Shown one piece after another: positions 2,357 to 53,874 of a stretch of DNA of 64,000 nucleotides. This DNA comes from Patescibacteria group bacterium (lineage in GTDB: Bacteria; Patescibacteriota; Minisyncoccia; JAHIHE01; JAGLIN01): assembly GCA_029210775.1 (NCBI GenBank), contig JARGGI010000003.1:4512-68511 (forward strand), given 5' to 3'. The notes under the pieces were generated by a model. It saw nothing but the letters and a program-made list of their open reading frames with translations. It was not told where the DNA came from and did no database searches. Numbering within the stretch: position 1 is the first letter of the stretch; each line of letters starts with the position of its first letter. A program made the position numbers and the translations under genes.

Positions 2357-3085
2357 TTATTCCGATATAACAACATTTTTACAATGTTGTCTTATTTTTT
2401 CTGCCATTATTTCAAGTGTTTCAGTTGAATATGAATTTAGTTTTTCTAATCCAACAGCAAGTGTTTTTTCTGGTCTAAAATTTTGGACGGAATAACGATA
2501 TAATTTTGAGAATATTTTTTTATCAATACTATTTATCCAATTAATTATGCCATCTATGTCTTCTTCATTTACATATCCTGGAACAATTGTCGTCCGAAGT
2601 TCAAGTTCGCTTTTGCTATTAGATATTGATTTTATGCTATTTTCAATATTTCCAATAAGATTATCTTTGTCTTTTTTTGTCATAATCTTATATTTTTTAG
2701 GAACAGTTTTTATGTCAATCGCCCAATAATCAACTAATCCACTATCAATTAAACTTGAAACTGCGTAAAAATATGATCCATTTGTATCAATTTTAACCAA
2801 AAATCCCATTTTTTTTATTTTTTCAATAAATTCCCTTAACCCAAGTTGCAAAGTCGGCTCTCCTCCAGTTATGCAAACTCCATCCAAATCCCCTTTTCTT
2901 GACTTTAAAAATTTCAAAATTTCTTCTTCCTTTATTTCAGAATCATAGTCAATTAATTTTGGATCAACAATGTCAGAATTATGACAAAATGGACAACGAA
3001 AGTTACAACCCATTGTAAAAACGGTTGTAGCTATCTTTCCAGGATAATCAAGCATTGTAAATTTTTGAAACCCTCCAATAAACAT
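2357..3085 (-). CDS. nrdG: anaerobic ribonucleoside-triphosphate reductase activating protein (radical SAM)
   Basis: GCNFRCPFCHN is a CxxxCxxC cluster near the N-terminus; size and position downstream of nrdD are consistent. Confidence 0.8.
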   Translation of the reverse strand: MFIGGFQKFTMLDYPGKIATTVFTMGCNFRCPFCHNSDIVDPKLIDYDSEIKEEEILKFLKSRKGDLDGVCITGGEPTLQLGLREFIEKIKKMGFLVKIDTNGSYFYAVSSLIDSGLVDYWAIDIKTVPKKYKIMTKKDKDNLIGNIENSIKSISNSKSELELRTTIVPGYVNEEDIDGIINWINSIDKKIFSKLYRYSVQNFRPEKTLAVGLEKLNSYSTETLEIMAEKIRQHCKNVVISE

Positions 3086-40196: not shown

Positions 40197-40610
40197 ATGA
40201 AAAGTAAAACACAAAAGTTTCCATTTTACAATAGTGATGAGGAATTGCAAAAGTTTTTATCAAGTAATCTAGCAGACACACTCAAACAAACTATTAAGGT
40301 GACTGTGAAAGTCATGATTAAAGATGAAATGGAATTATTTAGAAAAGAGATGGATGAAAAACTGCAATTCAATGGATATTATCAAAGGAATATGATGTCC
40401 ACTTTAGGAAAAATAGATAATATCAATGTACCAAGATTTAGACAAAATGTAGATAATCTTGAATTAAATTCTTTAAATATTTTTCAAGATCAAAAAAATA
40501 ATTTTATTAAAATGATTCAGCAGATGCATCTTTCGCAATCAATAACGTCTGTATTATTCCTCCCGAAATTTTTTCATCTTTTTCGTTTGATATTACAACC
40601 CTTGACATAA
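40197..40610 (+). pseudogene. IS256-family (mutator-type) transposase N-terminal remnant
   Basis: FNGYYQRNMMSTLGKIDNINVPRFRQ matches the conserved RNGYYER...LRVPRDR block of IS256 transposases; only about 130 aa remain. Confidence 0.6.
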
Positions 40611-40713
40611 ATCCTGCCAAATACGGATTATTTGTTTTAAGGTCTGTAAACATCTCTTTGAAAAAATTCGGATTCTTTTTAACCTGTTGTATTACTTCGT
40701 CCTCTGATTTCAC
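40507..40713 (-). CDS. small ORF (68 aa) resembling a Nif11/NHLP-type RiPP leader that ends in GG, followed by a 16-aa C-terminal segment
   Basis: MKSEDEVIQQVKKNPNFFKEMF... acidic helical N-terminus; ...NEKDEKISGG | IIQTLLIAKDASAESF; SD AGGTGA with GTG start; borders the island. Confidence 0.4.
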   Translation of the reverse strand: MKSEDEVIQQVKKNPNFFKEMFTDLKTNNPYLAGFMSRVVISNEKDEKISGGIIQTLLIAKDASAESF

Positions 40714-40844
40714 CTATATCACCTCGTTTAATTGTGTGTAAAAGCACTATTGTCATTTTGACTAATCAGTATAGCAAATTTAAACCAAAAGTCAACAGTA
40801 ATGGGTATAAAAAATAACCCTTTAGATAAAGGGATATTTTATAA

Positions 40845-40946
40845 TACTCATGTCAGGACAACTTTCGAACTTTTGATTGGGTGAAAACAATGCTTGTGCC
40901 AGAGCTTGTAATAAAAGATATCAATCAATTATTGTCACTGGCATGA
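40845..40946 (+). pseudogene. truncated paralog (copy 1) of the small ORF 43508..43675; conserved C-terminal 30 codons present, no start codon, stop just upstream
   Basis: Frame encodes ...QDNFRTFDWVKTMLVPELVIKDINQLLSLA*. Its nucleotide differences from copy 2 are mostly synonymous in this frame; the same upstream hairpin as copy 2 is present. Confidence 0.4.
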
Positions 40947-41120
40947 ATCTCACTGCGGGTCTCCGACTCCGCAGGTCGTCATCATGATATTACTCATTCA
41001 AACATCCAGAATATTCTATTTTTATACAATTATATTAGTCCCACTTGTTATGGGCTGCAATTCATCTCTGTGTGTCTTTAAAAACAGCATAGGATGTTCT
41101 TGCCGAAATTTATATATTTT

Positions 41121-41150
41121 AATACGATTTCGTTAAATCGTATTTTCTAA
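41121..41150 (+). terminator. rho-independent terminator (AATACGATTT-cgtt-AAATCGTATT, then TTTT) after copy 1
   Basis: Seen directly. Confidence 0.5.
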
Positions 41151-41167
41151 ACCGCAAAAAAACACAT

Positions 41168-41788
41168 TTATATTTTTTTAGAAATAATATAAAACCAGTC
41201 TCTTTTATGGGCAGAGAACTTCTTAATATAAAATGACTTAAAACCACATTTGGTTAAATAAACTAGAATTTCCTTTTTTGTGAATTTATTAAAAACAAAA
41301 TCATCAGGTTCTATATCTCCTTTTTCTTTCTTCATAGCAATAACCCCAAAAACGCCATTTTTCTTTAAGGTTCTTCTAACTTCTTTTAAAGAACTTTCAA
41401 TATCATTGAAAGTTAAATGCGTAAACAAAGAAGAAGAGGCCCAAATTCCATCAAAATAATTACCTTCAAAAATGAGCTGCACCATATTCATTAAATAAAA
41501 TTTACCCTTATTATTTTTATTGGCATAAGCTATCATTTTCTCAGATATATCTATTCCAAAACCATCATAGCCTTTTTCGATAAAATATTTTACATCCCTA
41601 CCAGTTCCACTTCCCATATCTAAAATTTTTCCTTTTTTAGATACACATTCTAAAAACTTATCAAGCTTATCTTGCATAAGTACATCCCCACTTTTTAAAT
41701 AGGAATCTAGATTATTATTATACCAGCTTTTTACTTCTTTATAGACCTGTTTCATAAAAAATCGAGAAGTAACTTTGCTACTTCTCAT
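41168..41788 (-). CDS. class I SAM-dependent methyltransferase
   Basis: Motif I ILDMGSGTGRD; 206 aa; no SD of its own; starts 8 nt after the preceding small ORF. Confidence 0.8.
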   Translation of the reverse strand: MRSSKVTSRFFMKQVYKEVKSWYNNNLDSYLKSGDVLMQDKLDKFLECVSKKGKILDMGSGTGRDVKYFIEKGYDGFGIDISEKMIAYANKNNKGKFYLMNMVQLIFEGNYFDGIWASSSLFTHLTFNDIESSLKEVRRTLKKNGVFGVIAMKKEKGDIEPDDFVFNKFTKKEILVYLTKCGFKSFYIKKFSAHKRDWFYIISKKI

Positions 41789-41796
41789 ATTAAAAT

Positions 41797-41904
41797 TTAA
41801 CGTTTATGCGAGAACTTTAATCGATTAAGTTCCACAGCTTTGGCAGCAGAAAGAAATGTTCTGATCTGCCTTGTTCTCACCAATATAGATGGAAACAAAC
41901 ACAC
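41797..41904 (-). CDS. 35-aa ORF (GTG start; MCLFPSILVRTRQIRTFLSAAKAVELNRLKFSHKR) with a strong SD, between the rSAM and methyltransferase genes
   Basis: AAGGAGGTGA 5 nt before the GTG; not in the ORF track (too short); candidate small peptide or coupling ORF. Confidence 0.35.
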   Translation of the reverse strand: MCLFPSILVRTRQIRTFLSAAKAVELNRLKFSHKR

Positions 41905-41953
41905 TTTCACCTCCTTATTTTTTGTATTCGTTGCACAACAAGCTTAGTATTTG

Positions 41954-43252
41954 CTACCGGCTTGCTTTCTCAAACATTTTTTTACTATAGAGTACTTTAA
42001 AGAATATTTCTCTATCTTCTTCCGATTTTACTGGCAACTCTAATTCATGCCATTTAAAGGCATTCCCATTCTGGGGTAGTTTAAGAGCAACGTTATATCC
42101 CTCCTCATCAAGAAATACCAATTCATCATTATACAATACCACACCGCCAAATTCCTCAGTTCTAATTTTTACATCACTTTTGAGCCGCAAATATTCCGGC
42201 ACAATAAAATCAAACTGAGAATGATTAACAACGGGTTTTATTAATTCCGGATTAGTCATGAGGGGGTCTTTCCCACGAATGTCGCCATAAAAAAGCTTAG
42301 CATCCATTCTACAGCCTCCAGAACATTGCAGGAGATAAGAACAGGTTTTACATGTTTCGTAGAGAAAAATACCATCACGCCATTCTTGCATCGCTAACCA
42401 GCATTCTCTTAAAGATTTCTCAAACAAATTACCATAGCTCATATCTGCATGGGCACAGGGACGTACTGATCCATCCGGAGAAACGGAACAATTAAATATT
42501 CCTGCGGTACAATTACGACGCGTAAATTGCTGATATTTTTCCATATCCTGAATAAAACAAAGTGGATAAGTTTCTAATATTTCTACCCACATTCCAAAAT
42601 CTATTTGCAGCCGCAGTAAATCGTCCATTGATTGCTTAAATTGCTGAGGCGTTCCACGATAATTCTTATACTCAGTGTTAGGGGAAGGTGCAACCTTAGT
42701 TGCAGAAAAACGCAACAAGCCAAGTTCATGAGCTAATTTTCCAGTTTCATAAACCTGATAAGCATTTTCCTTACGCACAACCATATTTGCGCTTGTTAAT
42801 ACTCCAGCATCTGTAAGCATGCGAATTTTTGGGAGCAAACGCTTATGGAAACCCTTACGTTGTATTATCTTATCATGTACTTCTGGCTGATAAGACAATA
42901 ACGTTGTCAATACTCCAACTCCATGATCACTAAAAAAACGCGTCATTTCTGGAGTAAGCTTTTGTAAATTGCTATTACAATAAACCCCTAGTCCCAATTC
43001 TCTTGCTTTCCCAATACCAGCCTTAAGAGTATCTTTAAACATTAATGGCTCACCACCAGTAAAGCACACTGACATTACCTTCCAGCGAGCAAGTTCTTCT
43101 ACTAATGTTTTAACCTGATTCGGACTCAGATGTTTCGTTTCCTCTTTTTGAATATTTTGACATGCCCGATAACAATGACTACAAACTTGATTGCAATCAT
43201 CAGTTACTTCGATTTGTACCGAAAGTGGCGCACTAAGTGTTCTGTATAACAT
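41954..43252 (-). CDS. radical SAM enzyme with C-terminal SPASM domain (anSME/peptide-maturase type)
   Basis: CNQVCSHC (CxxxCxxC) at aa 20-27; C-terminal auxiliary cluster motifs CTAGIFNCSVSPDGSVRPC and CKTCSYLLQCSGGC. Confidence 0.85.
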   Translation of the reverse strand: MLYRTLSAPLSVQIEVTDDCNQVCSHCYRACQNIQKEETKHLSPNQVKTLVEELARWKVMSVCFTGGEPLMFKDTLKAGIGKARELGLGVYCNSNLQKLTPEMTRFFSDHGVGVLTTLLSYQPEVHDKIIQRKGFHKRLLPKIRMLTDAGVLTSANMVVRKENAYQVYETGKLAHELGLLRFSATKVAPSPNTEYKNYRGTPQQFKQSMDDLLRLQIDFGMWVEILETYPLCFIQDMEKYQQFTRRNCTAGIFNCSVSPDGSVRPCAHADMSYGNLFEKSLRECWLAMQEWRDGIFLYETCKTCSYLLQCSGGCRMDAKLFYGDIRGKDPLMTNPELIKPVVNHSQFDFIVPEYLRLKSDVKIRTEEFGGVVLYNDELVFLDEEGYNVALKLPQNGNAFKWHELELPVKSEEDREIFFKVLYSKKMFEKASR

Positions 43253-43422
43253 TATCTGCCTCTATATTTTAAAAGAACTCATCTGATTAAAAAGTTTCTT
43301 TTTAATCATCCTTCCTTGTAAATAACTTTAACAAATCCAAAGATATTGTCAATACAGAGAGGATTTTTGTTGCGAATTGATAGAATATATTCCCCTATCA
43401 AAAGTTCTAACGTCCCTTTTTG

Positions 43423-43462
43423 GGTATAAAAATAATCCTTTAAACAAAGGATTATTTTTGTT
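43423..43462. terminator. hairpin (AAAATAATCCTTT-aaac-AAAGGATTATTTTT) upstream of copy 2; a homologous hairpin precedes copy 1 at 40806..40838
   Basis: Seen directly in both copies. Confidence 0.45.
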
Positions 43463-43507
43463 GGCTCCGCATCGTGAACGATGTTAGAACCATTTTTTTA
43501 AATTTAA

Positions 43508-43675
43508 ATGAGAATGCTTTTATCCCAGACCTCTCCGCACAGAGGCAGATTTAGTTTATTGATTGTCATATTGCTCGCTTGGCGGGACAGCTTTCGAACC
43601 TTTGATTGGGTAAAAGCGTTGCCTGTACCAGAGTTAGTGATTCGGCAAATTGGGCAATTATTAGAGCTTGCGTAA
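43508..43675 (+). CDS. small ORF (55 aa; MRMLLSQTSPHRGRFSLLIVILLAWRDSFRTFDWVKALPVPELVIRQIGQLLELA), copy 2 of a paralog pair; candidate precursor peptide
   Basis: ATG start; C-terminal 30 aa conserved with copy 1 through mainly synonymous substitutions; aromatic/Lys motif FRTFDWVK; a partial third copy of the 5' region lies at 43696..43760. Confidence 0.45.
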   Translation: MRMLLSQTSPHRGRFSLLIVILLAWRDSFRTFDWVKALPVPELVIRQIGQLLELA

Positions 43676-43894
43676 AAATATAATAAATATTCTATTCACA
43701 CGGTGGCAGATTTAGTTTATTTAATATTTTCAGTGCTCCGCTTTTCTTATCATTATTAACAATCTAACAGAAAGAGGTCGTTTGTCAATATGCTATTATG
43801 CAATGCTATTATGCAAGTTAATTTCTTTGTTATTATTCCCTCAATCAATAACCTCTCTCGGACTTACGCCGTTGCCAGGGCTGGTGATTTATAA

Positions 43895-44575
43895 TTAATT
43901 TCTATATTTTTGAATTCTACCTTCTTTAGAAACCCACATATCGCCAAATCCATAAAGTTTTCCTGATTCTGATAATTCAACCCATGATCCTTTTTCACCA
44001 ATAGCAACAAACTGCGTTTTAGATTCTAGCCTTAAATTCTTAAACGCATTAAAGGCAACTTCTGCGGTTTTCTCTTGAGAGTGGACAAGACACCCCAAAT
44101 CGATAATACCCCAACCTTTCTTCCATATTGCTCTATTGTCTTCAATGTCTGTATACCAAGCAGCGAGCGCCTGAACACCAGCGCTTATCCCGACAATAAC
44201 AATGCCTTTTTTTATTGCACGTTTTAATACCGGTAATAATTGCCAACGATCAAACAAAGATAGAAGATATTCTGTTTTTCCTCCTCCAAAATAAATTACT
44301 GAAGATTCCATTATGGCTACTTCAGCTGCTTCTTTGCCTTCTAATTCAACAACCGCTCGGAAATTAAAATCATTTTCAAAAATTTTCCGCATCGAATTAA
44401 TATAATCAATACTGTCTTTCGCAGCAGTTGGGAAAAAAATAAAATTAGCTCTATCTTTTTGTAAAGCAAATTTTTTTATTGCTATATCGACTGATTTTGT
44501 TTCGCCTTTTTTTATTTCACCTCCGCCTATGAGAAAAATTTTATTTTGCATAATAATATATTTAATTGAAAACAA
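43895..44575 (-). CDS. peptidase S51 / cyanophycinase-dipeptidase E family (type-1 glutamine amidotransferase-like fold)
   Basis: GGG...FFPTA..., YFGGGKTEYLL and the nucleophile elbow GISAGV; start at 44575 (TTG) or 44551 (ATG). Confidence 0.7.
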   Translation of the reverse strand: MFSIKYIIMQNKIFLIGGGEIKKGETKSVDIAIKKFALQKDRANFIFFPTAAKDSIDYINSMRKIFENDFNFRAVVELEGKEAAEVAIMESSVIYFGGGKTEYLLSLFDRWQLLPVLKRAIKKGIVIVGISAGVQALAAWYTDIEDNRAIWKKGWGIIDLGCLVHSQEKTAEVAFNAFKNLRLESKTQFVAIGEKGSWVELSESGKLYGFGDMWVSKEGRIQKYRN

Positions 44576-44633
44576 TTTTGTAAGTGATAGTTAAAAAATT
44601 ACCCTCTACTAATTGCGTAAAGGGCGGTAATAA

Positions 44634-45869
44634 TTAATTACCAATTTGGCTTTTACTTTCATACAGAAGATTTTTTATTTCTAACAATTCTGATATACCT
44701 CCAATTAGCGTTATGCCTGTTTTACGTACTTTGATATCAAGCTTTCCTGTTGTGGTTTTATTTGCCAAAACAACTCGCATTGGTATTCCTAAAAGATCGG
44801 CATCTATCAAAGAACGCCCTATTGATTGATCTCTTAAGTCTAATAATACAGTACAGCCTAATATTTCTAGATTTTTGGTTAATTTCTTCGCTTCTTCGGC
44901 TCGTTCCTGATTAGCTATCAAGTGTATATCAAACGGCGCTATTTCTATGGGCCAAACCAACCCATGTTCGTCGTGATAATACTCGGCGAGTATTTGCATC
45001 AATCGACTTAAACCAATACCCCCGACGGCAGTCTGAATCGGCTTATTACTACCTATCGACAACGCATTCATTTTCCCGGTAATAATAGTGCCATGACGCA
45101 CTATATCTCCGAGCTCCACAGCCGGTACGTTTTCCATTAAATGGCCGCAATTAGGACAAACATCCATTATTTGTTTACCAAACCTATAAGAATTGATGCA
45201 TGCTGTACATGTATGCACAAAACACTGTTTGGTGGCGGAAGGAACCCAAAAAGAATCAGCTGGAGATTCTAACGGTGCGAAATAATACGACGCTTTCTTG
45301 TAAGGCAAACCTAACCAGCCCAAGAAAGACCGCATTACTTCATCCATCCGATGCATTTCCTCGCTTAATTCGATTTCATTCCGCGCCAATATATACATAT
45401 CGCCCATTACAAACGATCTGCTGCGGATAAAACCATGACTAGGTTGCAATTCATTGCGTATGCGTTCTCCAATCTGGAAATAGCGAAGAGGCATATCCTT
45501 GTCTTTGAAATCCGACTGGCAAAATAAATTTACCATTGATTCTTCCTGAGTGGGATTTATAACATATCTTTTCCCGTCTTTAAGAGTAGTTTCACAGAAC
45601 AATCCGGCAAAACGTTCAGCACGTCCCGATTTCTCCCATAAAAACATTTCTTGAAGGCTAGGTAAAAACATTTCCCAAAATCCTTGCTCACGACAAAACC
45701 TCCTAAATGCTCCTGAAATTTTTTCAAGAACCAATACGGCAGGGGGTAAAAGTGCAATACATCCCGACGATATTTTTTTTGCATACCCAGCAGATTCAAG
45801 CCAAATTAAGCCATCAGCGTCATTCCGTTGTGGCAGTTTCGTTCTAAAAAGTCCCGATGAATAAAGCAT
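44634..45869 (-). CDS. bacterial-type prolyl-tRNA synthetase homolog lacking the INS editing domain, which is replaced by a CxxC...CxxC zinc ribbon
   Basis: Colinear with ProRS: motif 1 region LPPAVLVLEKI, motif 2 FQIGERIRNE...RSRSFVMGDMY, motif 3 GGIGLSRLMQIL, then an anticodon-binding domain (LVWPIEIAPFDIHLI); a CTAC...CPNC insert sits where INS would be; higher GC than the host genes. Confidence 0.75.
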   Translation of the reverse strand: MLYSSGLFRTKLPQRNDADGLIWLESAGYAKKISSGCIALLPPAVLVLEKISGAFRRFCREQGFWEMFLPSLQEMFLWEKSGRAERFAGLFCETTLKDGKRYVINPTQEESMVNLFCQSDFKDKDMPLRYFQIGERIRNELQPSHGFIRSRSFVMGDMYILARNEIELSEEMHRMDEVMRSFLGWLGLPYKKASYYFAPLESPADSFWVPSATKQCFVHTCTACINSYRFGKQIMDVCPNCGHLMENVPAVELGDIVRHGTIITGKMNALSIGSNKPIQTAVGGIGLSRLMQILAEYYHDEHGLVWPIEIAPFDIHLIANQERAEEAKKLTKNLEILGCTVLLDLRDQSIGRSLIDADLLGIPMRVVLANKTTTGKLDIKVRKTGITLIGGISELLEIKNLLYESKSQIGN

Positions 45870-45921
45870 TCATATCACCTCTTTGTTTTATATTAAATTC
45901 GTCAGTTAAAGAACTGCTTAA

Positions 45922-45950
45922 AGTATAGTTAATATCTATCGTATAGTCAA
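45922..45950 (-). promoter_or_regulatory. near-consensus sigma70 promoter for the ProRS-like/S51 operon (TTGACT-N17-TATACT)
   Basis: Seen directly on the minus strand, about 50 nt upstream of the SD GAGGTGAT. Confidence 0.45.
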
Positions 45951-45951
45951 T

Positions 45952-46002
45952 ATCCCTGCTCAAAATCTGACATTTCTACTTTGGGTTGACAATCCCTGCT
46001 CA
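45952..46002 (-). promoter_or_regulatory. two direct copies of ATCCCTGCTCA, 40 nt apart; the promoter-proximal copy abuts the -35
   Basis: Seen directly (45952-45962 and 45992-46002). Confidence 0.35.
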
Positions 46003-46015
46003 CAAACAAATCAAA

Positions 46016-47311
46016 TTATTCACCGAAAATTTTGGCATTCATCGCAATTTCTTTGAGTATTGTCTGCATAAACCTACATTTTTGCCTATCTATCTCCTTG
46101 CCGGAGATAATCTGGAATGCCGGACAAGGACCGCCGCAAATATGACGTGCTTCGCATTTACTACACTGGCTGATTCTCTTAATAGGAATATTCATTTTCC
46201 CCTTGAAATTAGTCAGAAGGACATCATTCCAATTTTGAGAGCAAAAAGACAAGTGCCCCTCAGTGCTAATCGAAGCCATTATATACCCATTATTAAACAT
46301 ACAAGGACAGTGGCGCTTAATATTATTTGCTAAAGAAAAAAGTATCGGCGACGCTGCGGAGTCTATTGTAACTTTATTTTTCCTAGCAATACGTACAAGC
46401 TTCACTAATATTTGTGCATATTTTTCTCCATCAATATTCCATGCCAAAGACCGATAATGAAATGGTGTGTTTATCGTTATCGTTTTAGAAGGAAATGTTT
46501 TTAATGTGCCACGAAAAATTTTCGGCAATTGATCCAAAAAACCGGCATGCGGAGTTATAAGAACATGCGTATCTATTCCCGCTTTTATTAAACGATAGTA
46601 ATTATGTTTTGTGTCCTTAAAACTGCCACGCCCGTTTTTATAAATCCTGAATTTATTGTTAATATTTTCTGGCCCATCTATAGAAACTCCAATTTTAAAA
46701 TCATTCTTCTTAAAAAACCTTATCATATTATCATTAAGAAATGTAAGGTTGGTTGTCATTGTATAAAACGGCTTAATCATCTTCCTTGTTTTGACAGCTT
46801 CATTAACCATGTCTACTGTCCGTTTGATATGATCAAACCTAATCAATGGCTCACCCCCAAAAAAATGATACGTAATTTTTTCTGATGTTCCGTAAGAAAT
46901 TGTTTTCTTAATTACAGTCTCAAGTGTAGCATGAGACATTGTTTTTAAATTATTACGATTCTTCGTAACAAAACATTCGGGGCATTTTAAATTACACTCC
47001 TCAGTAAGAGCAATTCTAAAAGCACGGATATCTGGGTTTAAATTGAAAACTTTCGGATAAGGTATAGATTTCGATCGACTAAAAAAACCAAGCTCGTCAA
47101 GTTCTTTAAGCACACGCCATGCCTCCTTTTGTTTAGAAAGTGGCATGGAAATTATTACCTTTTTTGGATCTCTGGCAATTTTAAAAGCGTTTAATATGAC
47201 AAGATGAGAAGAACCGACTTCCGCATAATTCAGTGTCTCTTCATCAAAAATAGTGATCTTCCCTCTTGATCCGGAATAAACCCGAAAAGGATGAGCTGAT
47301 ATTTTTTTCAT
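46016..47311 (-). CDS. radical SAM/SPASM enzyme with a ~110-aa N-terminal extension (RRE/PqqD-like position) before the CxxxCxxC cluster
   Basis: CNLKCPEC at aa ~115; C-terminal SPASM motif CSKCEARHICGGPC; start trimmed to MKKISAHPFRV so that it begins 4 nt after the stop of the upstream rSAM (the track ORF 46016..47410 includes an in-frame overlap). Confidence 0.8.
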   Translation of the reverse strand: MKKISAHPFRVYSGSRGKITIFDEETLNYAEVGSSHLVILNAFKIARDPKKVIISMPLSKQKEAWRVLKELDELGFFSRSKSIPYPKVFNLNPDIRAFRIALTEECNLKCPECFVTKNRNNLKTMSHATLETVIKKTISYGTSEKITYHFFGGEPLIRFDHIKRTVDMVNEAVKTRKMIKPFYTMTTNLTFLNDNMIRFFKKNDFKIGVSIDGPENINNKFRIYKNGRGSFKDTKHNYYRLIKAGIDTHVLITPHAGFLDQLPKIFRGTLKTFPSKTITINTPFHYRSLAWNIDGEKYAQILVKLVRIARKNKVTIDSAASPILFSLANNIKRHCPCMFNNGYIMASISTEGHLSFCSQNWNDVLLTNFKGKMNIPIKRISQCSKCEARHICGGPCPAFQIISGKEIDRQKCRFMQTILKEIAMNAKIFGE

Positions 47312-47315
47312 ATAA

Positions 47316-48239
47316 TTATTTCCAAAATCTAGGATTATCAAAAAGCGAAACGCAATGAACACCGAAACAATTAGGTAGTTTTTCACTTTTCGATAATATA
47401 TTATTATCAATATTAGCTATTATCTCAGAAACCGGATCATTGAATAGATTACCCAGTTTTATATCTGGCCGATGGAAACACGGCGTCAAATCACCTTCGG
47501 CGCTACAAACAAAATACTCCTTACCCATACAACAGAGGGCGTTCGGTAATAGATTCTTGTTATTAAAAATCGCTTCCGTAAGCGCTATATAATCCTTTAT
47601 ATGCGTTGATTTATTTTTTTGCGAAATTTTTTTTATGGCATTAAAAATAATATTGTCTTTATTCTCTGTATTTAATTGCTGCATTTTTCCTTTTGGAATA
47701 AAGACTTCTTGAAATCGAATATCCGAAATACCAAGACCTTGAAGCCAATTAATAGTTTCATCTAATGTGGAAGCATTTTTCTTTGTTACTACCGTCGTCG
47801 TCGCCACATTTCGATAGCCACGCGAAATCAATCCCTTAATAGCATATACGGTGTCATCAAATCTACCACGTTGTTTATTGTGTACTTCTCTTATATGAGA
47901 ATCTATGGAAATATCAATCCTGTCCACATTGAGCCTTATTATCGTATCCAAATCGGCATCAGTAAGAAAAGTTGCACTGGTGTTTATTATTACCGGAATT
48001 TTTTTCTTTTTTATTTCACGAATAATAATATATGTTTCTTGCTTTAATTTTAAATGCAAAGGTTCGCCACCGGTTAAAATAACTTTATCAAAATTAAGCG
48101 CTTCTATTTTATCAGCAAAAATCTCAGCTTTATCTGGACTAATTTTTGAGGCTACTCGTTTTTGATATCCAGTCGCATAAAAACAATAGGCGCAACTAAT
48201 ATTACATAAATTATTTACCATCAAAAATAAACAGCGCAT
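47316..48239 (-). CDS. radical SAM enzyme with a short twitch/SPASM-like C-terminal Cys cluster
   Basis: CNISCAYC at aa 12-19; C-terminal CCMGKEYFVCSAEGDLTPC...CFGVHC. Confidence 0.8.
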   Translation of the reverse strand: MRCLFLMVNNLCNISCAYCFYATGYQKRVASKISPDKAEIFADKIEALNFDKVILTGGEPLHLKLKQETYIIIREIKKKKIPVIINTSATFLTDADLDTIIRLNVDRIDISIDSHIREVHNKQRGRFDDTVYAIKGLISRGYRNVATTTVVTKKNASTLDETINWLQGLGISDIRFQEVFIPKGKMQQLNTENKDNIIFNAIKKISQKNKSTHIKDYIALTEAIFNNKNLLPNALCCMGKEYFVCSAEGDLTPCFHRPDIKLGNLFNDPVSEIIANIDNNILSKSEKLPNCFGVHCVSLFDNPRFWK

Positions 48240-48589
48240 ATTTATTATATTTATACAGTAAAAAATACATTGTCAGACAAAATATGTTAATTAAGGATAC
48301 TTAATTATAAAAATTCCCCTTGCAATCAAAAAAACAAGAGGAATTTTAAAATGTGATATAGTAATTCTCTCTTAACCAGATTGACATGATGTCCTTGCTT
48401 TCTGTGTAGCTATATTAACTTTTTTTGCTTTTTTTTGTGATTTCATAGTAATAATATTCCTTTTATAATCATCAAATTAACCCTTAAATATTTCGACTTT
48501 TAATTTTTATAATAAAAACGGACACTGACCTTTAATCAAATATAGTATATTTCTCCTTATCTGTCAATGGCTCGTGCCTACATTCTGCT

Positions 48590-49663
48590 CCGAAGTGCAA
48601 CATCATAAAGGACATCCAAAGCCTGGTATAATAGTTAAGTCTTCACTTAATTATTAACCAACAAATAGATGCCCTACAAACATATTACACCAGATCAGAG
48701 AAATGAGCTATCTGCCCTTAAAAGAACTAAAATAAGACAGGAAGAAATCGCTCAATTATTGGGAAAAAACAGAACGACAATTTACAGGGAAATTATAAGA
48801 AACAAAAATAAGAATGGAAAATACGATGCCAGAATCGCCAAACAAAAAACCAAAAAAAGAAGAATAAAAGCCAACCAAAGATTCAGAAAAATAGAAAATA
48901 ACAGATGGTTGAGAACATATCTAATTAAAAAAATAAAAGTATTGGTCGCCAGAACAGATTGCGGGAAGAATAAAAAGGAAATGGCCAGAAGACAAATCAA
49001 AACATATCGGCAAAGACAGCATCTATGATTTCATATATACTGAAAGAAAAGATCTGGTAAAATATCTCCGATGCCAGAAGGGAAAATATCGCAGAAGGTA
49101 TGGCACGAGAATTAGAGAAAAACAGCGAGAGGAAGCTAAAAAGAAGAGGATTGATACAAGGCCTGAAATTGTTAAAACGAGAGAAAGAATCGGCGATTGG
49201 GAAGGAGATACTATTGTCGGCAAAGAAAAAACAATTCATATTTTGACTCATGTGGAAAGAAAAAGCGGAATGCTGTTTGCGGATAAGTTGGAAAAAGCGA
49301 CAGCGGAATTAACTAGAGAAAAAACTATTAAGAGATTTGAAAAAATACCAAGAAAGAAAAAATACACGCTCACTTATGATAATGGAACAACCTTTGCTAG
49401 CCATCAAGATACTGAAAGAAAGATAAAAATAGGCATTTATTTTGCTTTTCCTTATCATTCTTGGGAAAGAGGATGCAACGAAAACGCTAATGGGCTTCTC
49501 AGGCAATTCTTTCCCAAAAAATCATCATTCGCAAATATTAATCAAAAAGATATTGACAAAGCCTATCGGCTCATTAATAATAGACCAAGAAAGAGGCTTA
49601 ACTATCTAACTCCTTACGAAGTGTTCTATGAGAAATAATTTCTTAAAAAATGTTGCACTTTGG
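48590..49663 (+). mobile_element. IS30-family insertion sequence (~1.07 kb) with terminal inverted repeats CCGAAGTGCAACAT / ATGTTGCACTTTGG
   Basis: IRL at 48590-48603 and IRR at 49650-49663 (13 of 14 matching); a transposase lies between them. Confidence 0.7.
48669..49638 (+). pseudogene. IS30-family transposase interrupted by a single +1 frameshift in an A7 run (~48925-48935)
   Basis: ORF1 is the HTH N-terminus (MPYKHITPDQRNELSALKRTKIRQEEIAQLLGKNRTTIYREIIRN); the +1 frame continues YWSPEQIAGRIKRKWPEDKSKHIGKDSIYDFIYTERKD...DWEGDTIVGKEKTIHILTHVERKSGMLFADKL...DNGTTFASHQD...NNRPRKRLNYLTPYEVFYEK (DDE core) with no further stops. Confidence 0.8.
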
Positions 49664-49828
49664 AATAGAATTCAAGGTGTCTACAATGATTCGTGACACA
49701 AACTCGCGACAGAGAGCATAACATTATCTATCAAACAGCCCTTCTGTGTTAATTTTCGGTCAAGTAAACCAGAGATTACCCTATTCTATTCTTAAACTCC
49801 TTAATAATATTCTCACATCCTTCCGCTC

Positions 49829-50149
49829 TCACATATCCCATGCTTTTTTATAATCTGGGAACTCATTGGTTTTCTTAATCTCTCTGTCCGGATCTTTTTG
49901 TTTGAAATATTTCAAAAAGATATGCTCAAGAAAGGCATGCACTAGAATATGAATGCGAACATTGAATGATTCGTTTTTATATTTATTCTCAAAATATTTC
50001 CACGATTTCGCTGCTTGTTTTAAGTTTCCGTCTTGAATAAACAACTGATGAATCAGCTCATGAATTAAGTTATCGATAAAACGATCTGGCTCTTCGTAGG
50101 CTCGTAATGTTAAAGGATCAGAGAATGGTACGCAGTTTCCTACCAACAA
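49829..50149 (-). CDS. HExxH-containing fragment (NLIHELIHQLF); possible ImmA/IrrE (DUF955)-like metallopeptidase remnant
   Basis: Motif only; TTG start; N-terminal region apparently missing. Confidence 0.3.
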   Translation of the reverse strand: MLVGNCVPFSDPLTLRAYEEPDRFIDNLIHELIHQLFIQDGNLKQAAKSWKYFENKYKNESFNVRIHILVHAFLEHIFLKYFKQKDPDREIKKTNEFPDYKKAWDM

Positions 50150-50384
50150 CCTAAGCCGATTGTTGATTGGAATAAATGGCTAATGTTAGCTATAAATCGT
50201 TGTTTTGTTGCTAAAATATCATGCAGTTATATAGACCTATTTATGTCGACTTTTGCTCTGGAAAAAATCCCGAAATTGGGACAATACTGCTCTGAAATTG
50301 TAACGAATTAACTACAAATTAATCTTACCAGATAATAACGGATATGTCAACGCTCGCTCGCTCAGTCTTGTCTGATATAAGATG

Positions 50385-50456
50385 CTCCGCGAGAGGGATT
50401 CGAACCCCCGACCAATTGGTTAACAGCCAACTGCTCTACCACTGAGCTATCGCGGA
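50385..50456 (-). tRNA. tRNA-Asn (anticodon GTT)
   Basis: Minus-strand TCCGCGATAGCTCAGTGGTAGAGCAGTTGGCTGTTAACCAATTGGTCGGGGGTTCGAATCCCTCTCGCGGAG; canonical cloverleaf, anticodon loop CTGTTAA; its 3' end faces the island. Confidence 0.85.
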
Positions 50457-50578: not shown

Positions 50579-52009
50579 TTAATAATCAAGCAATCTTTTT
50601 GATTCTCTATGCTTTCTAATTTTTTCAAGTGCTTTTGCTTCAATCTGCCTAATTCTTTCTCTTGTCACACCAAATTCCTGTCCAATTTCCTCCAAAGTAT
50701 GAGTCACTCCATCTTCAAGTCCAAAACGTAATTTCAAAATTTTCTGTTCTCTTGGAGAAAGTTCAACTAAAATTTCTTTCACATACCCCTTAAGTAGCTG
50801 TCTTCCTGCAGATTGAGATGGAAGAACTGCATCAGTGTCTTCTATAAAATCACGAAGAGTACTGTCGTCATCATCTTCACCGACAGAAGTCTCAAGTGAA
50901 ACCGTATCTTGAGATATTTTCATAATATGTCTAACTTTTTCAACTTCAATATTCATTTCAGATGCAATTTCCTCTGGTAATGGTTCTCTTCCTAAATCCT
51001 GAACAAGACGCCTTGTTACCTGAGAAAACTTATTTATTGTTTCAACCATATGAACTGGAATTCTAATCGTGCGAGATTGATCTGCTATTGCTCTCGTAAT
51101 CGCTTGACGAATCCACCATGTTGCATATGTTGAAAATTTATATCCCTTTCTATAATCAAATTTTTCAACAGCTCTGAATAGTCCAATATTTCCTTCTTGA
51201 ATTAAATCCAATAAACTCAAATTTGCACTTCTTCCAACATATTTTTTTGCAATACTTACAACCAAACGAAGGTTTGCTTCAGAAAGCATCTGCTTAGCGG
51301 CCACATCACCCTTTTCTTTTCTTTTTGATAAAGAGACTTCTTCTTCCCCAGTCAAAAGAGACACTCTTCCAATCTCACGCAGATACATTTGAACAGAATC
51401 GCTGGAAATATTATCAAGAGACAATTCTCTTATTTCTTTTTCTACTTCTTTCTTGGTTTTTTTACTAACATCTTCTTTGGCATCAGAAACATCAATTATA
51501 TCAACATTGCTTACTACCTTTATATTTTCTTGTTCAAATTTGTCATATAGCAATTCAAGTTGACCAATATCATTTTCAATATCAGGAATTATTTTTATAA
51601 TCTCTTCTTCGGTTACAAAACCTTTCGATTTTCCCCTACTCATTAATTCTTCAATTTGATTATTAATGTTTTCATTTTCAACATCCTGCTTCTTTAAGTC
51701 TTTCTTTTTCAATTTTCCTGGCTTTATGCTCTTCCCTTTTTGCTTTCTTTTAAGTTTTGAAGATTTTCTCGCAATTGATTTTTTTGCTATTTTCTCTTTT
51801 TTCGCTTTTGCTTTTGCTTTTACAACAGTTTTAACTGTTTTCTTTTTCGGAGTTACTTTTTTCACTGTTTTCTTTTTTTTTGCTTTTGCTGTTACAACAG
51901 TTTTAGCTTCTTTCTTTTTCGGAGTTACTTTTTTCATTGTTTTCTTTTTCATCAATTTTGATTTTATCAATTTAATTGTTTTTTTATTTTTTATTTTTTT
52001 TGTTTTCAT
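50579..52009 (-). CDS. rpoD: RNA polymerase sigma-70 factor RpoD with a Lys/Ala/Thr-rich tandem-repeat N-terminus (histone H1-like)
   Basis: Regions 2-4 are conserved ([27 protein letters not shown]; 4.2 [23 protein letters not shown]); N-terminal [18 protein letters not shown] repeated twice (a ~63-nt tandem repeat near 51820-51960). Confidence 0.9.
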
Positions 52010-52053
52010 AATATGTCTATTACAAAATAAATATAAATTATATTTTTTTAAAA

Positions 52054-53874
52054 TTATTCTGAATCCAAATCATTAATTTCTTTGATGTATCTCGCATGAT
52101 TTTCGATGTCATCCTGACTTGCATTATTACCCCTTTTTTTAATATCACTTTCAAGCTGTATTAACTTTTCTTTCAGAATTATTTTCCTTAAATTTGATAT
52201 GCAAATTTTTGCCTCCTTGTGTACATTCCCAATTTCATCTATTTCCGATTCAATCGCAAGAGTAGCCGTATCCCAAATATAAGAAAGTGATTTATGCTGA
52301 CTATCAACATCTCTATTAATTGAAATTTCACTCTTTAGGTTTGAAAGGATTTCATCATTTAATTTATTTTCTTTTAAATATAGATTTCTAATCAATGTAT
52401 AAATTTGATTTATTCTGTCATTTGAAAAACAATTTTCTAAATCAAGAAATAATTCCCCAAAAAAATGAGGATAAAGAATGATAAGACCCAGAATTCTTTC
52501 TTGAAGTTGATCTGTTCTATTCACGACTTCTGCTTTTTGAAAATCGCTTTGGGCAATTTGATTATTAAATCCAGATTTTTTTCTTTTAATTTTATTTTCA
52601 TATTCAAAAATAAATTTTTCATCAACTCCAAGTTTATTTGAGAGCATATTTCGATATACTCCCCTGTCAATGTCGTTTGACATTTTTACAATAATTTCCA
52701 AAAGTTCTTCTGCTATTTTCTTTTTTCCTTCAACGCTATCTTTGTCATATTTTGAAAAAGCAGTTTCAAAATAAAAGTCCATAATCGGTTTTTGATTTTT
52801 TACAGAATCAACCCATAACTCTGGATTACTTTTCACACAATCAGCAGGATCTTTTCCTTCGGCAATTGTGATAACACCAACATTCATTCCCTCAGATAAA
52901 GCAATTTCAATTCCTCTTTGTGCGGCTCGGATTCCAGCAGAATCCATATCAAAAGAAAATGCAATATTATCCGTATATCTTTTAATAATTTTGATTTGAT
53001 CTGATGTCAATGCTGTACCAGATGTTGCAACTACATTTTCAACTCCAGCTTGAAAAGATGCAATAACATCCATATTTCCTTCAACCATTACGCATAGATC
53101 ATTTTTTCTGATTGATATTTTCGCCTTGTCTAAACCATATAAAACCCTGCCTTTATTATAAATAATTGTCTCGGGATTATTAATATATTTTGCACTGTTT
53201 TCATCAGCTCCAGGCATAACACGAGAACTAAACCCAATTGTCTGACCACTGATATTTTCTATTGGAAACATAATTCTTCCTCTAAATCTGTCATAATATC
53301 CCCCTTTATCTTTTTTTACAGTCATTCCAGAAGAAAAAATATCTTCCTCTTTATATCCTTTCTTTTTCAAAAAGCTACTCAATATATCCCATGAATCTGG
53401 AGCATATCCGATTTGAAATTTTTCGATAATATCATTTGTAAGTCCTCTTTTTATTAGGTATTCATGGGCAATCTTACCCTTCTTGATTTTCAAACATTCT
53501 TGATAAAATTTTCTTGATAAATCAATTATCTCAAATATTTTTGTCTTTTTGCCCGTATTTTCGTATTTTGATTTTTTAATTTCAACCCCTGCTTTTTCCC
53601 CAAGTAATTTCAATGCTTCTGGAAATTCCAGCCCTTCCATTTTCATCACAAAAGTAAAAATGTCTCCCCCTTCGCCACAACCAAAACAATGCCAAATCTG
53701 ACGCTCTGGACTTATCATAAATGAAGGTGTTTTTTCATTATGAAATGGGCAATTTGCTTTCAAATTTCTACCCGCCCTTTGAGTCTGAAGATAACCCGAA
53801 AGCACCTCCTCGACGCTTAATCTTGATTTGATTTCATCCACTTGAGAGTTCAACATAAAACCAGCGATAAACAA
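52054..53874 (-). CDS. dnaG: DNA primase
   Basis: CHC2 zinc finger [11 protein letters not shown]...CFGCG; TOPRIM EGNMDVI; directly upstream of rpoD. Confidence 0.9.

Follow-up and report, generated by a model that had tools for sequence, protein, structure and literature searches.

Two probable radical SAM peptide cassettes in a Patescibacteria contig, one of them including a paralog of prolyl-tRNA synthetase

Introduction

Why is a paralog of prolyl-tRNA synthetase (ProRS) encoded among enzymes that modify peptides? This question is raised by a stretch of a Patescibacteria genome (contig JARGGI010000003.1, assembly GCA_029210775.1), of which 64 kb were analyzed and are referred to here as the window. 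Six minus-strand open reading frames (ORFs) lie between 41.1 and 48.3 kb. The first-pass annotation of this DNA had read them as a single cluster organized around three radical S-adenosylmethionine (SAM) enzymes, of the kind that makes ribosomally synthesized peptides with post-translational modifications (RiPPs), and had placed them on an island integrated at a tRNA gene. The components that it listed, namely three radical SAM (rSAM) enzymes, a SAM methyltransferase, an S51 peptidase and the ProRS paralog, are all present and all on the minus strand. The analysis presented here indicates that they belong to two cassettes, which are very probably genuine and undescribed RiPP-type systems. Both belong to radical SAM RiPP pathways, and cassette 1 has components that have not been seen in RiPPs. 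Neither cassette is covered by a curated protein family, a PADLOC model or an IMG/VR contig, and no description of either one was found in the searchable literature library.

Two cassettes in one region

The genes of the two cassettes are the following, with coordinates given as positions of the window.

Cassette 1 (43,895-48,466, minus strand)
48372-48446, minus: precursor peptide 1, 24 aa, MKSQKKAKKVNIATQKARTSCQSG; conserved small ORF upstream of rSAM_C
47316-48239, minus: rSAM_C, 307 aa; Pfam Radical_SAM 2.5e-20, SPASM 3.8e-5
46016-47311, minus: rSAM_B, 431 aa, MDF1498051.1; CteB-like by AlphaFold2 (AF2) model and Foldseek
44634-45869, minus: ProRS paralog, 411 aa, MDF1498050.1, without editing domain; NCBIfam scores below the ProRS cutoffs
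43895-44575, minus, true start probably 44551: S51-family serine peptidase, about 218 aa; Pfam Peptidase_S51 2e-21
43922-48466, minus: cassette 1 as a transferable unit, from nucleotide homology to contig L030

Cassette 2 (41,168-43,252)
41954-43252, minus: rSAM_A, 432 aa; Pfam Radical_SAM and SPASM
41825-41902, minus: precursor peptide 2, 25 aa, MFVSIYIGENKADQNISFCCQSCGT, GTG start, Shine-Dalgarno sequence AAGGAGGTG; translation verified, homologs at the same position
41168-41788, minus: SAM methyltransferase, class I; Pfam Methyltransf_25 1.8e-17

The single cluster with three rSAM enzymes does not hold. In none of about 30 loci with the ProRS-like module (comparison loci and contigs carry L numbers) is there a homolog of rSAM_A or of the methyltransferase. 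Because these two genes are never found with the module, and have a precursor and genomic contexts of their own, they form a separate cassette and are not part of one cluster.

Cassette 1 comprises five genes in about 4.5 kb: precursor 1, rSAM_C, rSAM_B, the ProRS paralog and the S51 peptidase. A search of 5.8 billion proteins with the ProRS-like protein returned a distinct clade of 36 clusters (399-412 aa, 40-94% identical to the query), beyond which the matches drop sharply to ordinary ProRS at E 1e-43. Wherever upstream sequence is present, members of this clade are encoded in the same co-linear set, in which the S51 gene comes first and is separated by about 260 nt from the genes for rSAM_C (about 304 aa), rSAM_B (about 435 aa) and the ProRS-like protein, in this order. 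The five cassette genes are co-linear in about 12 lineages, which include bacteria of the Candidate Phyla Radiation (CPR) and metagenome-assembled genomes (MAGs) labeled 'Bdellovibrionales'. Among 185,579 species-representative genomes only five loci were found (Uhrbacteria, Moraniibacteriota and three 'Bdellovibrionales' MAGs), and a metagenome scan yielded 14 further ones.

The closest relative with genomic context is contig L030, which has the gene order of the window (precursor, rSAM_C, rSAM_B, ProRS-like, S51) and is 85.3% identical to it over 4553 nt. This homology covers exactly positions 43922-48466 of the window and then stops, which bears out the horizontal mobility proposed at first reading. 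In L030 the cassette lies between rplU and Ham1/recR/dnaB, with no insertion sequence (IS), tRNA, rSAM_A or methyltransferase, and none of its flanking genes is present in the window. In several other loci the GC content of the module lies 5-13 points above that of the flanks. The available data thereby support cassette 1 as a self-contained, horizontally transferred module.

Co-linearity and transfer also bear on the simplest alternative, in which an ordinary sacti- or ranthipeptide bacteriocin cassette has come to lie next to ProRS genes that are mere housekeeping passengers. This explanation can draw on the resemblance of rSAM_B to CteB, on the Cys of the peptide core, on the compactness of CPR genomes, where adjoining genes are often unrelated, and on the minimal zinc-ribbon bacterial ProRS of similar length used by some CPR bacteria (419 residues in L021). 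However, the paralog lies inside the 4.5-kb block that has moved between unrelated contexts, keeps its place in about 12 lineages, MAGs from outside the CPR included, and is divergent at invariant ProRS positions. Moreover, in L004, L021 and the 'Bdellovibrionales' loci it coexists with a further ProRS gene or with two. Provided that the co-linearity figures hold, chance neighborhood is already wrong, and it is regarded here as very unlikely.

Further neighbors occur at single loci. In a lineage from Hainich groundwater (L001:6343-10424), the module is followed by a decarboxylase dependent on pyridoxal phosphate (PLP) of 584 aa, an unknown protein of 301 aa and a cysteinyl-tRNA synthetase (CysRS), with a stand-alone C39 peptidase domain further on. 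In a 'Bdellovibrionales' MAG (L010:1616-1711), ARAGORN reports a tRNA-Ala(GGC) of 96 nt upstream of the module, about 20 nt over the usual length.

The precursor peptide of cassette 1 and its maturases

The small ORFs with strong Shine-Dalgarno sequences reported by the first-pass annotation include two real, conserved precursor genes. Precursor 1 has a basic leader, with the consensus KARRIRLAAQ, followed by a conserved C-terminal core of the form Q-x-x-[R/H]-x-S-C-[Q/H]-S-x. The gap of about 260 nt upstream of rSAM_C holds a precursor ORF in every locus where the region is present, and the peptide is kept at the protein level while the GC content of the hosts spans 30% to 62%. Its endings are SCQSG, SCQSA or SCHST, and the precursors are almost devoid of Asp, the canonical specificity residue of S51 peptidases. 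In all loci the ORF is followed by a stable hairpin and a U-tract, an arrangement that is usual behind RiPP precursor genes. Pfam and NCBIfam contain no family for precursor 1 or for precursor 2. Besides the peptide of the window, the precursors of cassette 1 include the following.

L030: MKSQKKAKKIAIATQKARTSCQSG
L001: ...KARRIQLTAQKPRASCQSA
L004: ...KARRIRLAVQKPRTSCQSG
Uhrbacteria: ...KARRIRLAAQKPRTSCQSG
'Bdellovibrionales': ...KARRIRLAAQPPRSSCHST
L021: MKRVALRKQTAHTSCQSG

The maturase most readily placed is rSAM_B. Its AF2 model (pLDDT 91.4) begins with a strand-and-helix domain of the RiPP recognition element (RRE) type (residues 1-75), to which the radical SAM barrel and then a seven-Cys SPASM domain are joined. 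The N-terminal extension, described earlier only as RRE-sized, therefore has the winged-helix fold of an RRE in this model. The sequence comparison with PqqD/RRE models that had been suggested for it came out empty in Pfam even at E 1, and the RRE is visible in the structure model only. In full-length Foldseek searches the best match is CteB (5WGG/5WHY, TM 0.71-0.74), to which identity is about 20%, followed by TigE, anSME and ChlB. The protein has invariant Cys residues, and its family comprises about 64 clusters at 90% identity.

The second maturase, rSAM_C, is always co-linear with rSAM_B. It has a CxxxCxxC motif and five conserved C-terminal Cys, corresponding to a partial SPASM or twitch domain, and no RRE. 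Its best NCBIfam matches are WgkB, W-cofactor maturase, MoaA and PapB, all far below cutoff, and its weak matches are divided between peptide maturases and nucleotide-acting enzymes (MoaA, viperin).

None of the three rSAM proteins of the region reaches a curated NCBIfam cutoff. Against curated maturase families (PapB, SCIFF, AlbA, SkfB, CcpM and others) the best scores are 113-118 bits, with cutoffs of 340-520. The first reading was thus right that no named family fits, every NCBIfam match being far below its curated cutoff, and its assignment of the region to RiPP-type peptide modification is supported.

The ProRS paralog and its linked genes

The ProRS-like gene, already singled out as not being a usual member of such gene sets, is indeed an unusual and informative component. 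Its product joins a class II core of the bacterial type to an anticodon-binding domain. A zinc ribbon of four invariant Cys stands in place of the INS editing domain, and the minimal ProRS of CPR bacteria has a zinc ribbon at the same position. With the curated models for ProRS, the protein reaches 206.7 bits for PRK09194 (cutoff 558), 183.3 for proS_fam_II (cutoff 306.7) and 164.7 for the short form PRK12325 (cutoff 550), and PGAP gives it a domain name only and does not call it a ProRS.

The reference set for the paralog clade consisted of true bacterial ProRS, 37 of them long and 11 minimal. The ATP-binding residues of class II motifs 2 and 3 are invariant in the clade (R138, E140, R149, R151, F153, G284, G286 and R289), and T107, E109, E110, D157, Y159 and Arg142 of the motif-2 loop are retained as well. 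In contrast to these, about 20 positions that are invariant in both long and minimal true ProRS are systematically replaced. The replacements include H108Q, E206S, GED214-216KQC, H/N255D, F257M/V, G281A, Y283M and K353R, together with changes at R26, Y38, S122/Y123, QTKF134-137 and N229, and several of these positions lie around the amino-acid pocket. The paralog also evolves faster than two of the genes that accompany it, with 44-61% identity among copies, compared to 61-69% for the canonical ProRS that is often linked to it and 60-66% for rSAM_B. Taken together, it is rather likely that the paralog is an integral, neofunctionalized component of the pathway.

A promoter-like sequence (TTGACT-17-TATACT, 45922-45950) lies in the gap between rSAM_B and the paralog, which is conserved at 107-210 nt, and a terminator-like hairpin (44601-44625) separates the paralog from the S51 gene. 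It is possible that the paralog has a transcript of its own, apart from that of the maturases.

Other ProRS genes coexist with the paralog in L004, L021, L010-12, L018, L024 and L120; the 64-kb window has no second one. In seven of about ten lineages (L004-6, L009, L010-12/23/119/120, L018, L019, L020 and L024), a canonical archaeal-type ProRS of 478 aa is encoded directly downstream of the paralog. This protein matches the ProRS of T. thermophilus (1H4Q) over its full length at E 1e-145. It belongs to a module-specific clade with 61-88% identity among its copies and only about 50% to other CPR ProRS (the 502-aa protein of L004, Nomurabacteria), and its divergence (61-69%) parallels that of rSAM_B.

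Two of these arrangements deserve a separate description. At L004:5116-13739, and also in L005 and L006, three ProRS-type genes lie within 8 kb: a 502-aa ProRS of the archaeal type is encoded ahead of the module, and behind it come the paralog and the 478-aa ProRS. In L004 the two archaeal-type enzymes are 51% identical, and the next gene encodes an RlmN/Cfr-like rSAM protein of 315 aa (151.7 bits versus a cutoff of 290). In a Moraniibacteriota MAG (L009:6492-7912) the linked ProRS is split into two frames at about residue 271, by a frameshift or an assembly error.

Every lineage has the S51 peptidase, encoded ahead of the precursor in some and behind the ProRS genes in others, and its GxSAG motif, His and Glu are invariant in an alignment of 10 module copies. 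In one lineage, the 'Bdellovibrionales', the next gene encodes an S66 peptidase of the LD-carboxypeptidase/MccF family. Peptidases of both families are known from microcin C self-immunity, where MccG-type S51 enzymes hydrolyze the processed aminoacyl-nucleotide and the S66 enzyme MccF has the same role (PMC9239234).

A distant variant of the module was found at L121:7931-12130 and in L122 (JGI Ga0117909_1001811 and Ga0117906_1000398). It encodes a precursor, MKLKRKKHTKIKTSTTTKLCMQSGGCAEKNKSKK (...KLCMQSGGC...), an rSAM protein of 468 aa that is 33% identical to rSAM_B, an rSAM/SPASM protein of 285 aa and an S51 peptidase of 202 aa. It is adjoined by a truncated, divergent protein of 395 aa that resembles alanyl-tRNA synthetase (AlaRS; 95.6 bits for alaS, with a cutoff of 457), which hints that the synthetase type can vary between cassettes.

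Orphan copies of the paralog (46-48% identical) occur in Nomurabacteria of the CG2_30_43_9 type (L014-L017, L022, L027-L029), where they directly follow an archaeal-type ProRS of 530 aa. They are in turn followed by a 478-aa GFO_IDH_MocA-like protein and by a different rSAM/SPASM protein (449 aa, with an N-terminal RRE-like domain), and a search of these loci for a precursor gave nothing convincing. A pyrrolysine-like system with a dedicated tRNA was considered and rejected: no module locus has a dedicated tRNA, and a tRNA-Pro(GGG) is found only at the orphan loci, 3.6 kb downstream.

A possible pathway for cassette 1

From gene content, precursors, folds, co-inheritance, mobility and the divergence of the paralog, all of them observed, we infer a pathway in which each chemical step and the target are conjectural. 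In this model the basic precursor of 24 aa would be made in excess from its own promoter, with the hairpin behind its gene acting as an attenuator. Its leader would be bound by the N-terminal RRE of rSAM_B, and rSAM_B and rSAM_C would modify the S-C-[Q/H]-S core; a thioether at the single Cys appears the most likely product. Alternatively, rSAM_C, which lacks an RRE and is about as similar to MoaA and viperin as to peptide maturases, could act on a nucleoside or a second substrate. The ProRS paralog, with its remodeled pocket, would no longer have a housekeeping role and would attach a prolyl-type (aminoacyl) moiety to the rSAM-modified peptide or to its payload, using either ATP and the amino acid directly or Pro-tRNAPro as donor, the latter in the manner of AcmF and SbzA.

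The product would be a Trojan-horse antimetabolite against prolyl-tRNA synthetase. The S51 peptidase might detoxify or process the payload as MccG does, as might the S66 enzyme, like MccF, in the one lineage that has it. The canonical archaeal-type ProRS could supply Pro-tRNA, be an insensitive copy of the target, or both, and the cassette of the window would then be a minimal version without the extra ProRS. That cassette 1 makes a ProRS-directed peptide antimetabolite is, by analogy, a possibility that we favor tentatively. A more general formulation is that cassette 1 represents a new RiPP class, in which a neofunctionalized paralog of a class II aminoacyl-tRNA synthetase (aaRS), ProRS-like here and AlaRS-like in the variant, aminoacylates an rSAM-modified peptide to give a Trojan-horse product against the cognate synthetase, with self-protection coming from a dedicated canonical ProRS and the S51/S66 hydrolases; in this form the claim is doubtful.

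Precedents for individual steps come from several systems. In the biosynthesis of ascamycin, the truncated AlaRS-like protein AcmF moves Ala from Ala-tRNA onto sulfamoyl-adenosine, while AcmD, an extra canonical AlaRS, makes Ala-tRNA and is also the resistant copy; SbzA, from the SB-203208 pathway, is the equivalent that resembles isoleucyl-tRNA synthetase (PMC12945691). In the seven of about ten lineages with a linked canonical ProRS, cassette 1 resembles these pathways in that a non-canonical aaRS-like clade is paired with an extra canonical synthetase of its own type, and the AlaRS-like protein of the distant variant is, like AcmF, limited to the N-terminal aminoacylation region. In contrast, the Streptomyces pathways build nucleoside sulfamates or sulfonamides without a ribosomal peptide or rSAM maturases, the synthetase type in cassette 1 is ProRS, and AcmF has lost the ATP-binding residues that the ProRS paralog keeps.

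With microcin C, cassette 1 has in common a short ribosomal peptide combined with an adenylate-type enzyme, an S51 peptidase in the cluster (and S66 in one lineage), and an aminoacyl-tRNA synthetase as the implied target. However, it has no MccB/ThiF-type nucleotidyltransferase, MccC exporter or MccE acetyltransferase, its precursor does not end in Asn, and the implied target is ProRS and not aspartyl-tRNA synthetase. Its S51 peptidase has Glu where the clade-V enzymes have Asp, and its two rSAM enzymes are lacking in microcin C clusters.

Among maturases, rSAM_B is closest to the CteB type, which forms thioethers in ranthipeptides, sactipeptides and SCIFF peptides. It shares their three-part layout, with an RRE at the N-terminus ahead of the radical SAM barrel and of a SPASM domain that has seven Cys, CteB being its best structural match, and a precursor containing Cys is encoded alongside, followed by an attenuator hairpin. 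The core of cassette 1 differs in having a single Cys within S-C-Q-S instead of SCIFF or CxxxD motifs. Moreover, known sactipeptide and ranthipeptide clusters have no counterpart of three further components of cassette 1, namely its second rSAM enzyme without an RRE, its aaRS paralog and its S51 peptidase.

Several observations weigh against the proposed pathway. The extra canonical ProRS is absent from both the window and L030. According to the gene tables, the conserved module loci contain no exporter, no MccB-type nucleotidyltransferase and no nucleoside-building genes, and the third residue of the S51 triad is Glu and not the Asp of the MccG clade. As the paralog keeps its ATP-binding residues, unlike AcmF, it may still be a working aaRS. 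The AlaRS-like neighbor of the distant variant is found in one lineage only, is convergent and lies beside the housekeeping genes pheST. The Nomurabacteria orphan loci have no rSAM_B, rSAM_C or precursor, and the orphans fit a true ProRS or an orphan-immunity ProRS at least as well. Finally, the steps themselves are not readable from sequence.

Some of these points lead to a different account of the synthetases, in which the two rSAM enzymes alone make a cross-linked, ProRS-inhibiting peptide and the paralog and the archaeal-type ProRS are both drug-insensitive replacements. As is generally known, aaRS copies in biosynthetic clusters mostly serve self-resistance (AcmD and SbzA are described in PMC12945691), and the paralog does retain its ATP motifs, Arg142 and the anticodon-binding domain. 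The Nomurabacteria orphans lie beside ProRS and tRNA-Pro, as orphan immunity genes do, and the promoter-like site ahead of the paralog is a separate one. On the other hand, the replacement of about 20 invariant positions, several of them at the pocket, goes far beyond the usual resistance alleles, and the paralog (207 bits against the cutoff of 558) is not named a ProRS by PGAP. If the paralog were itself the resistant enzyme, the second, module-specific canonical ProRS of seven lineages would be redundant, and the truncated AlaRS-like protein of the distant variant could not replace AlaRS. A role of the synthetases in immunity only is therefore considered unlikely.

A further account has the peptide as a scaffold, onto which the paralog would ligate an amino acid that the rSAM enzymes transform and the S51 peptidase frees. 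The cell itself would use the resulting proline-derived metabolite, and the linked ProRS would discriminate against this metabolite or supply its substrate. The logic of this account is that of pearlin, mycofactocin and pyrroloquinoline quinone (PQQ). In the pathways that involve peptide aminoacyl-tRNA ligases (PEARLs), as for 3-thiaglutamate and the ammosamides, a ribosomal scaffold peptide receives an amino acid, which is tailored and then cleaved off by a peptidase, as would be the case here. However, PEARLs are LanB-like and not aaRS-like, and no module locus has a LanB-like gene. Mycofactocin and PQQ systems likewise have a short precursor with a conserved C-terminus (MftA, PqqA), an RRE-dependent rSAM/SPASM enzyme, a peptidase and no exporter. 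They differ from cassette 1 in their core motifs and in their accessory genes, which are absent here, and cassette 1 has a sporadic and horizontally transferred distribution.

The absence of an exporter from the conserved module, the position of the conserved part of the precursor at its C-terminus, the nature of S51 enzymes as exo- or dipeptidase-type hydrolases and the PLP-dependent decarboxylase directly downstream in one lineage are all in agreement with a scaffold, as is the general lack of many biosynthetic pathways in CPR bacteria. In contrast, the scores for MftC (82.8 bits, cutoff 265) and PqqE (74.3, cutoff 381) are far below cutoff, and no homolog of a PEARL, of MftB/D/E/F or of PqqB/C is present. 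The patchy spread among species representatives and the horizontal transfer suit a conflict system better, and the S66/MccF-type neighbor and the extra ProRS copies point to toxicity. A scaffold-peptide route thus appears quite unlikely.

The last alternative is a function within translation, where the modified basic peptide would not be secreted and would regulate or partner ProRS or tRNAPro, much as EpmA and EpmB act on elongation factor P. As in that system, a class II aaRS paralog is paired with radical SAM enzymes that would act on a translation-related target. The very basic peptide could bind RNA; the linkage to canonical ProRS is tight, and one clade lies near tRNA-Pro. Nevertheless, EpmA has no anticodon domain, EpmB is an aminomutase and not a SPASM peptide maturase, and the EpmA/EpmB system has no precursor peptide. 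The RRE and SPASM domain of rSAM_B are typical of peptide maturases and not of the aminomutase fold, a rare, patchy and transferred distribution is unlike that of a core translation function, and the S51 and S66 hydrolases would be left without a role. This explanation is highly improbable.

The production of a ProRS-directed antimetabolite by cassette 1 would, if true, have consequences for several areas. To our knowledge, RiPP pathways borrow aminoacyl-tRNA chemistry through LanB-like PEARLs and not through aaRS paralogs, and the only known transferases that resemble an aaRS are those of a few nucleoside pathways in Streptomyces. ProRS is a validated drug target, and CPR bacteria are tiny, host-dependent and thought to be poor in secondary metabolism. 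The system would be the first natural bacterial antibiotic system directed at ProRS and the first RiPP programmed by an aaRS paralog, and it would come from CPR/Patescibacteria. Cassette 1 points to a possible new tailoring enzyme, which would link three separate fields, as well as to a possible natural ProRS inhibitor, and it suggests that CPR bacteria may carry transferable chemical weaponry or signaling against translation. With five genes in 4.5 kb and a known precursor sequence, it is directly testable.

Cassette 2

Cassette 2 consists of rSAM_A, precursor 2 and the methyltransferase, and is an undescribed, widespread CPR family. The AF2 model of rSAM_A (pLDDT 92.1) has a full SPASM domain and a C-terminal RRE-like domain (residues ~350-430), and its best Foldseek matches are SkfB, SuiB, CteB and anSME. 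Its family is large, with members in Moranbacteria, Paceibacterota, WWE3, Saccharimonadales and others. Moranbacteria contigs have the same order of rSAM gene (73% identical), small gap and methyltransferase gene (67% identical), set among unrelated genes. The true start of the methyltransferase in the window is probably at 41755, after a hairpin at 41787-41763. Homologs of precursor 2 are found at the corresponding position.

Moranbacteria L031-33, after the rSAM gene: MFVSIYIDENQVDQNVSFCCQNCGT
L034/35, beside an rSAM_A homolog of 47% identity: ...NASFCCQSGCDA

In the pathway envisaged for this cassette, rSAM_A, with its C-terminal RRE, would act on the Cys-rich SFCCQSCGT core, and the methyltransferase would tailor the product. 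The SFCCQS-type precursors open a second, much larger RiPP family that spans the CPR.

More distant relatives of rSAM_A stand in other settings. In L034/L035 a CysRS gene adjoins the homolog. In WWE3 (L036-L039; 4324-6070), a homolog of 33% identity is followed by an acidic, Cys-rich peptide of 49 aa, MAVGILRLQTTRVCEDNCDGEDIDGVPCVDVEDPPCYEMCQDSDDGPND, two paralogous HExxH proteins of 210 aa and another RRE-bearing rSAM protein. This set looks like a different RiPP cluster, centered on a maturase of that family.

Composition and boundaries of the region

The two cassettes are set among the following features.

40197-40610, plus: possible remnant of the N-terminal part of an IS256-family transposase (weak); NCBIfam transpos_IS256 E 4.8e-5, 22.5 bits
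40851-40912, plus: 62-nt direct repeat, copy A, 79% identical to copy B
43580-43641, plus: 62-nt direct repeat, copy B, between cassette 1 and cassette 2
48539-48567, minus: promoter-like site TTGACA-17-TATATT (11/12), upstream of precursor 1 and just beyond the end of the IS30 element; consensus match only
48582-49671, plus: IS30-family element with 22-nt terminal inverted repeats; transposase match E 1.9e-39
49829-50149, minus: ORF of 106 aa with a HELIH motif; no Pfam, NCBIfam or PADLOC match
50384-50456, minus: tRNA-Asn(GTT), 3' end towards the region

To the right of the cassettes follow, in order, the IS30 element, the HExxH ORF, tRNA-Asn(GTT), rpoD and dnaG; to the left lie the IS256-like fragment, a truncated trypsin-like gene, and then Dus and MatE. 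The IS30 element was correctly recognized at first reading. Its inverted repeats are 86% complementary, and its transposase is broken by one frameshift. Less can be said for the IS256 remnant at the left edge, which does give a match, albeit a weak one whose score falls well short of the cutoff of 150 bits. Similarly, the HExxH fragment described as ImmA-like has its motif, whereas the ImmA label finds no counterpart in Pfam or NCBIfam. A relationship of this ORF to the HExxH proteins encoded beside the rSAM_A homolog in WWE3 was rejected, as there is no similarity.

The GC content of the region (34.4%) does exceed that of the left (29.5%) and right (31.0%) flanks, but the shift to 40-47% reported earlier was overstated, the maximum in any 500-nt window being 0.434. 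In the set of 33 ORFs with 200 aa or more (mean 32.1%, standard deviation 3.2), only the ProRS-like gene (40.0%) and rSAM_A (38.1%) are outliers, and the methyltransferase gene has 27.4%.

The 62-nt repeats bracket cassette 2. Each plus-strand copy corresponds to the C-terminal end of an ORF (...PELVIxxIxQLLxLA*), the two ends being ...FRTFDWVKALPVPELVIRQIGQLLELA and ...VKTMLVPELVIKDINQLLSLA. These ends match no family and may be C-terminal transposase remnants; the direct repeat looks like IS debris. The region is thus pieced together from two unrelated cassettes, with IS debris between them, and from further remnants of IS elements.

The 3' end of tRNA-Asn faces the region, as had been noted. 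Integration at this tRNA gene was rejected: the region has no ORF for an integrase, a second copy of its 3' end (14-20 nt, with up to 2 mismatches) is absent from the rest of the window, and in the closest relative cassette 1 occupies a site without a tRNA. No contig syntenic with the flanks of the window was found. Apart from the tRNA, no riboswitch, T-box or other Rfam RNA was detected at 38-52 kb of the window.

Two other origins were considered and set aside. A phage-borne origin was rejected, as IMG/VR contains no members of the rSAM_B or ProRS-like families and only distant radical SAM cores. A known defense system was rejected as well, PADLOC having returned only a generic likeness of the radical SAM core to pVip and a generic methyltransferase likeness.

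Elsewhere in the window, RpoD (50579-52009) has an N-terminal extension of about 110 aa that is repetitive and extremely rich in Lys, Ala and Thr, and a spurious Phe-rich ORF at 51666-52076 is the opposite strand of this extension. A further radical SAM gene close to the left edge is suggested at about 2726-3031, where a radical SAM/SPASM maturase is weakly matched by tblastn, with 29% identity over 103 aa.

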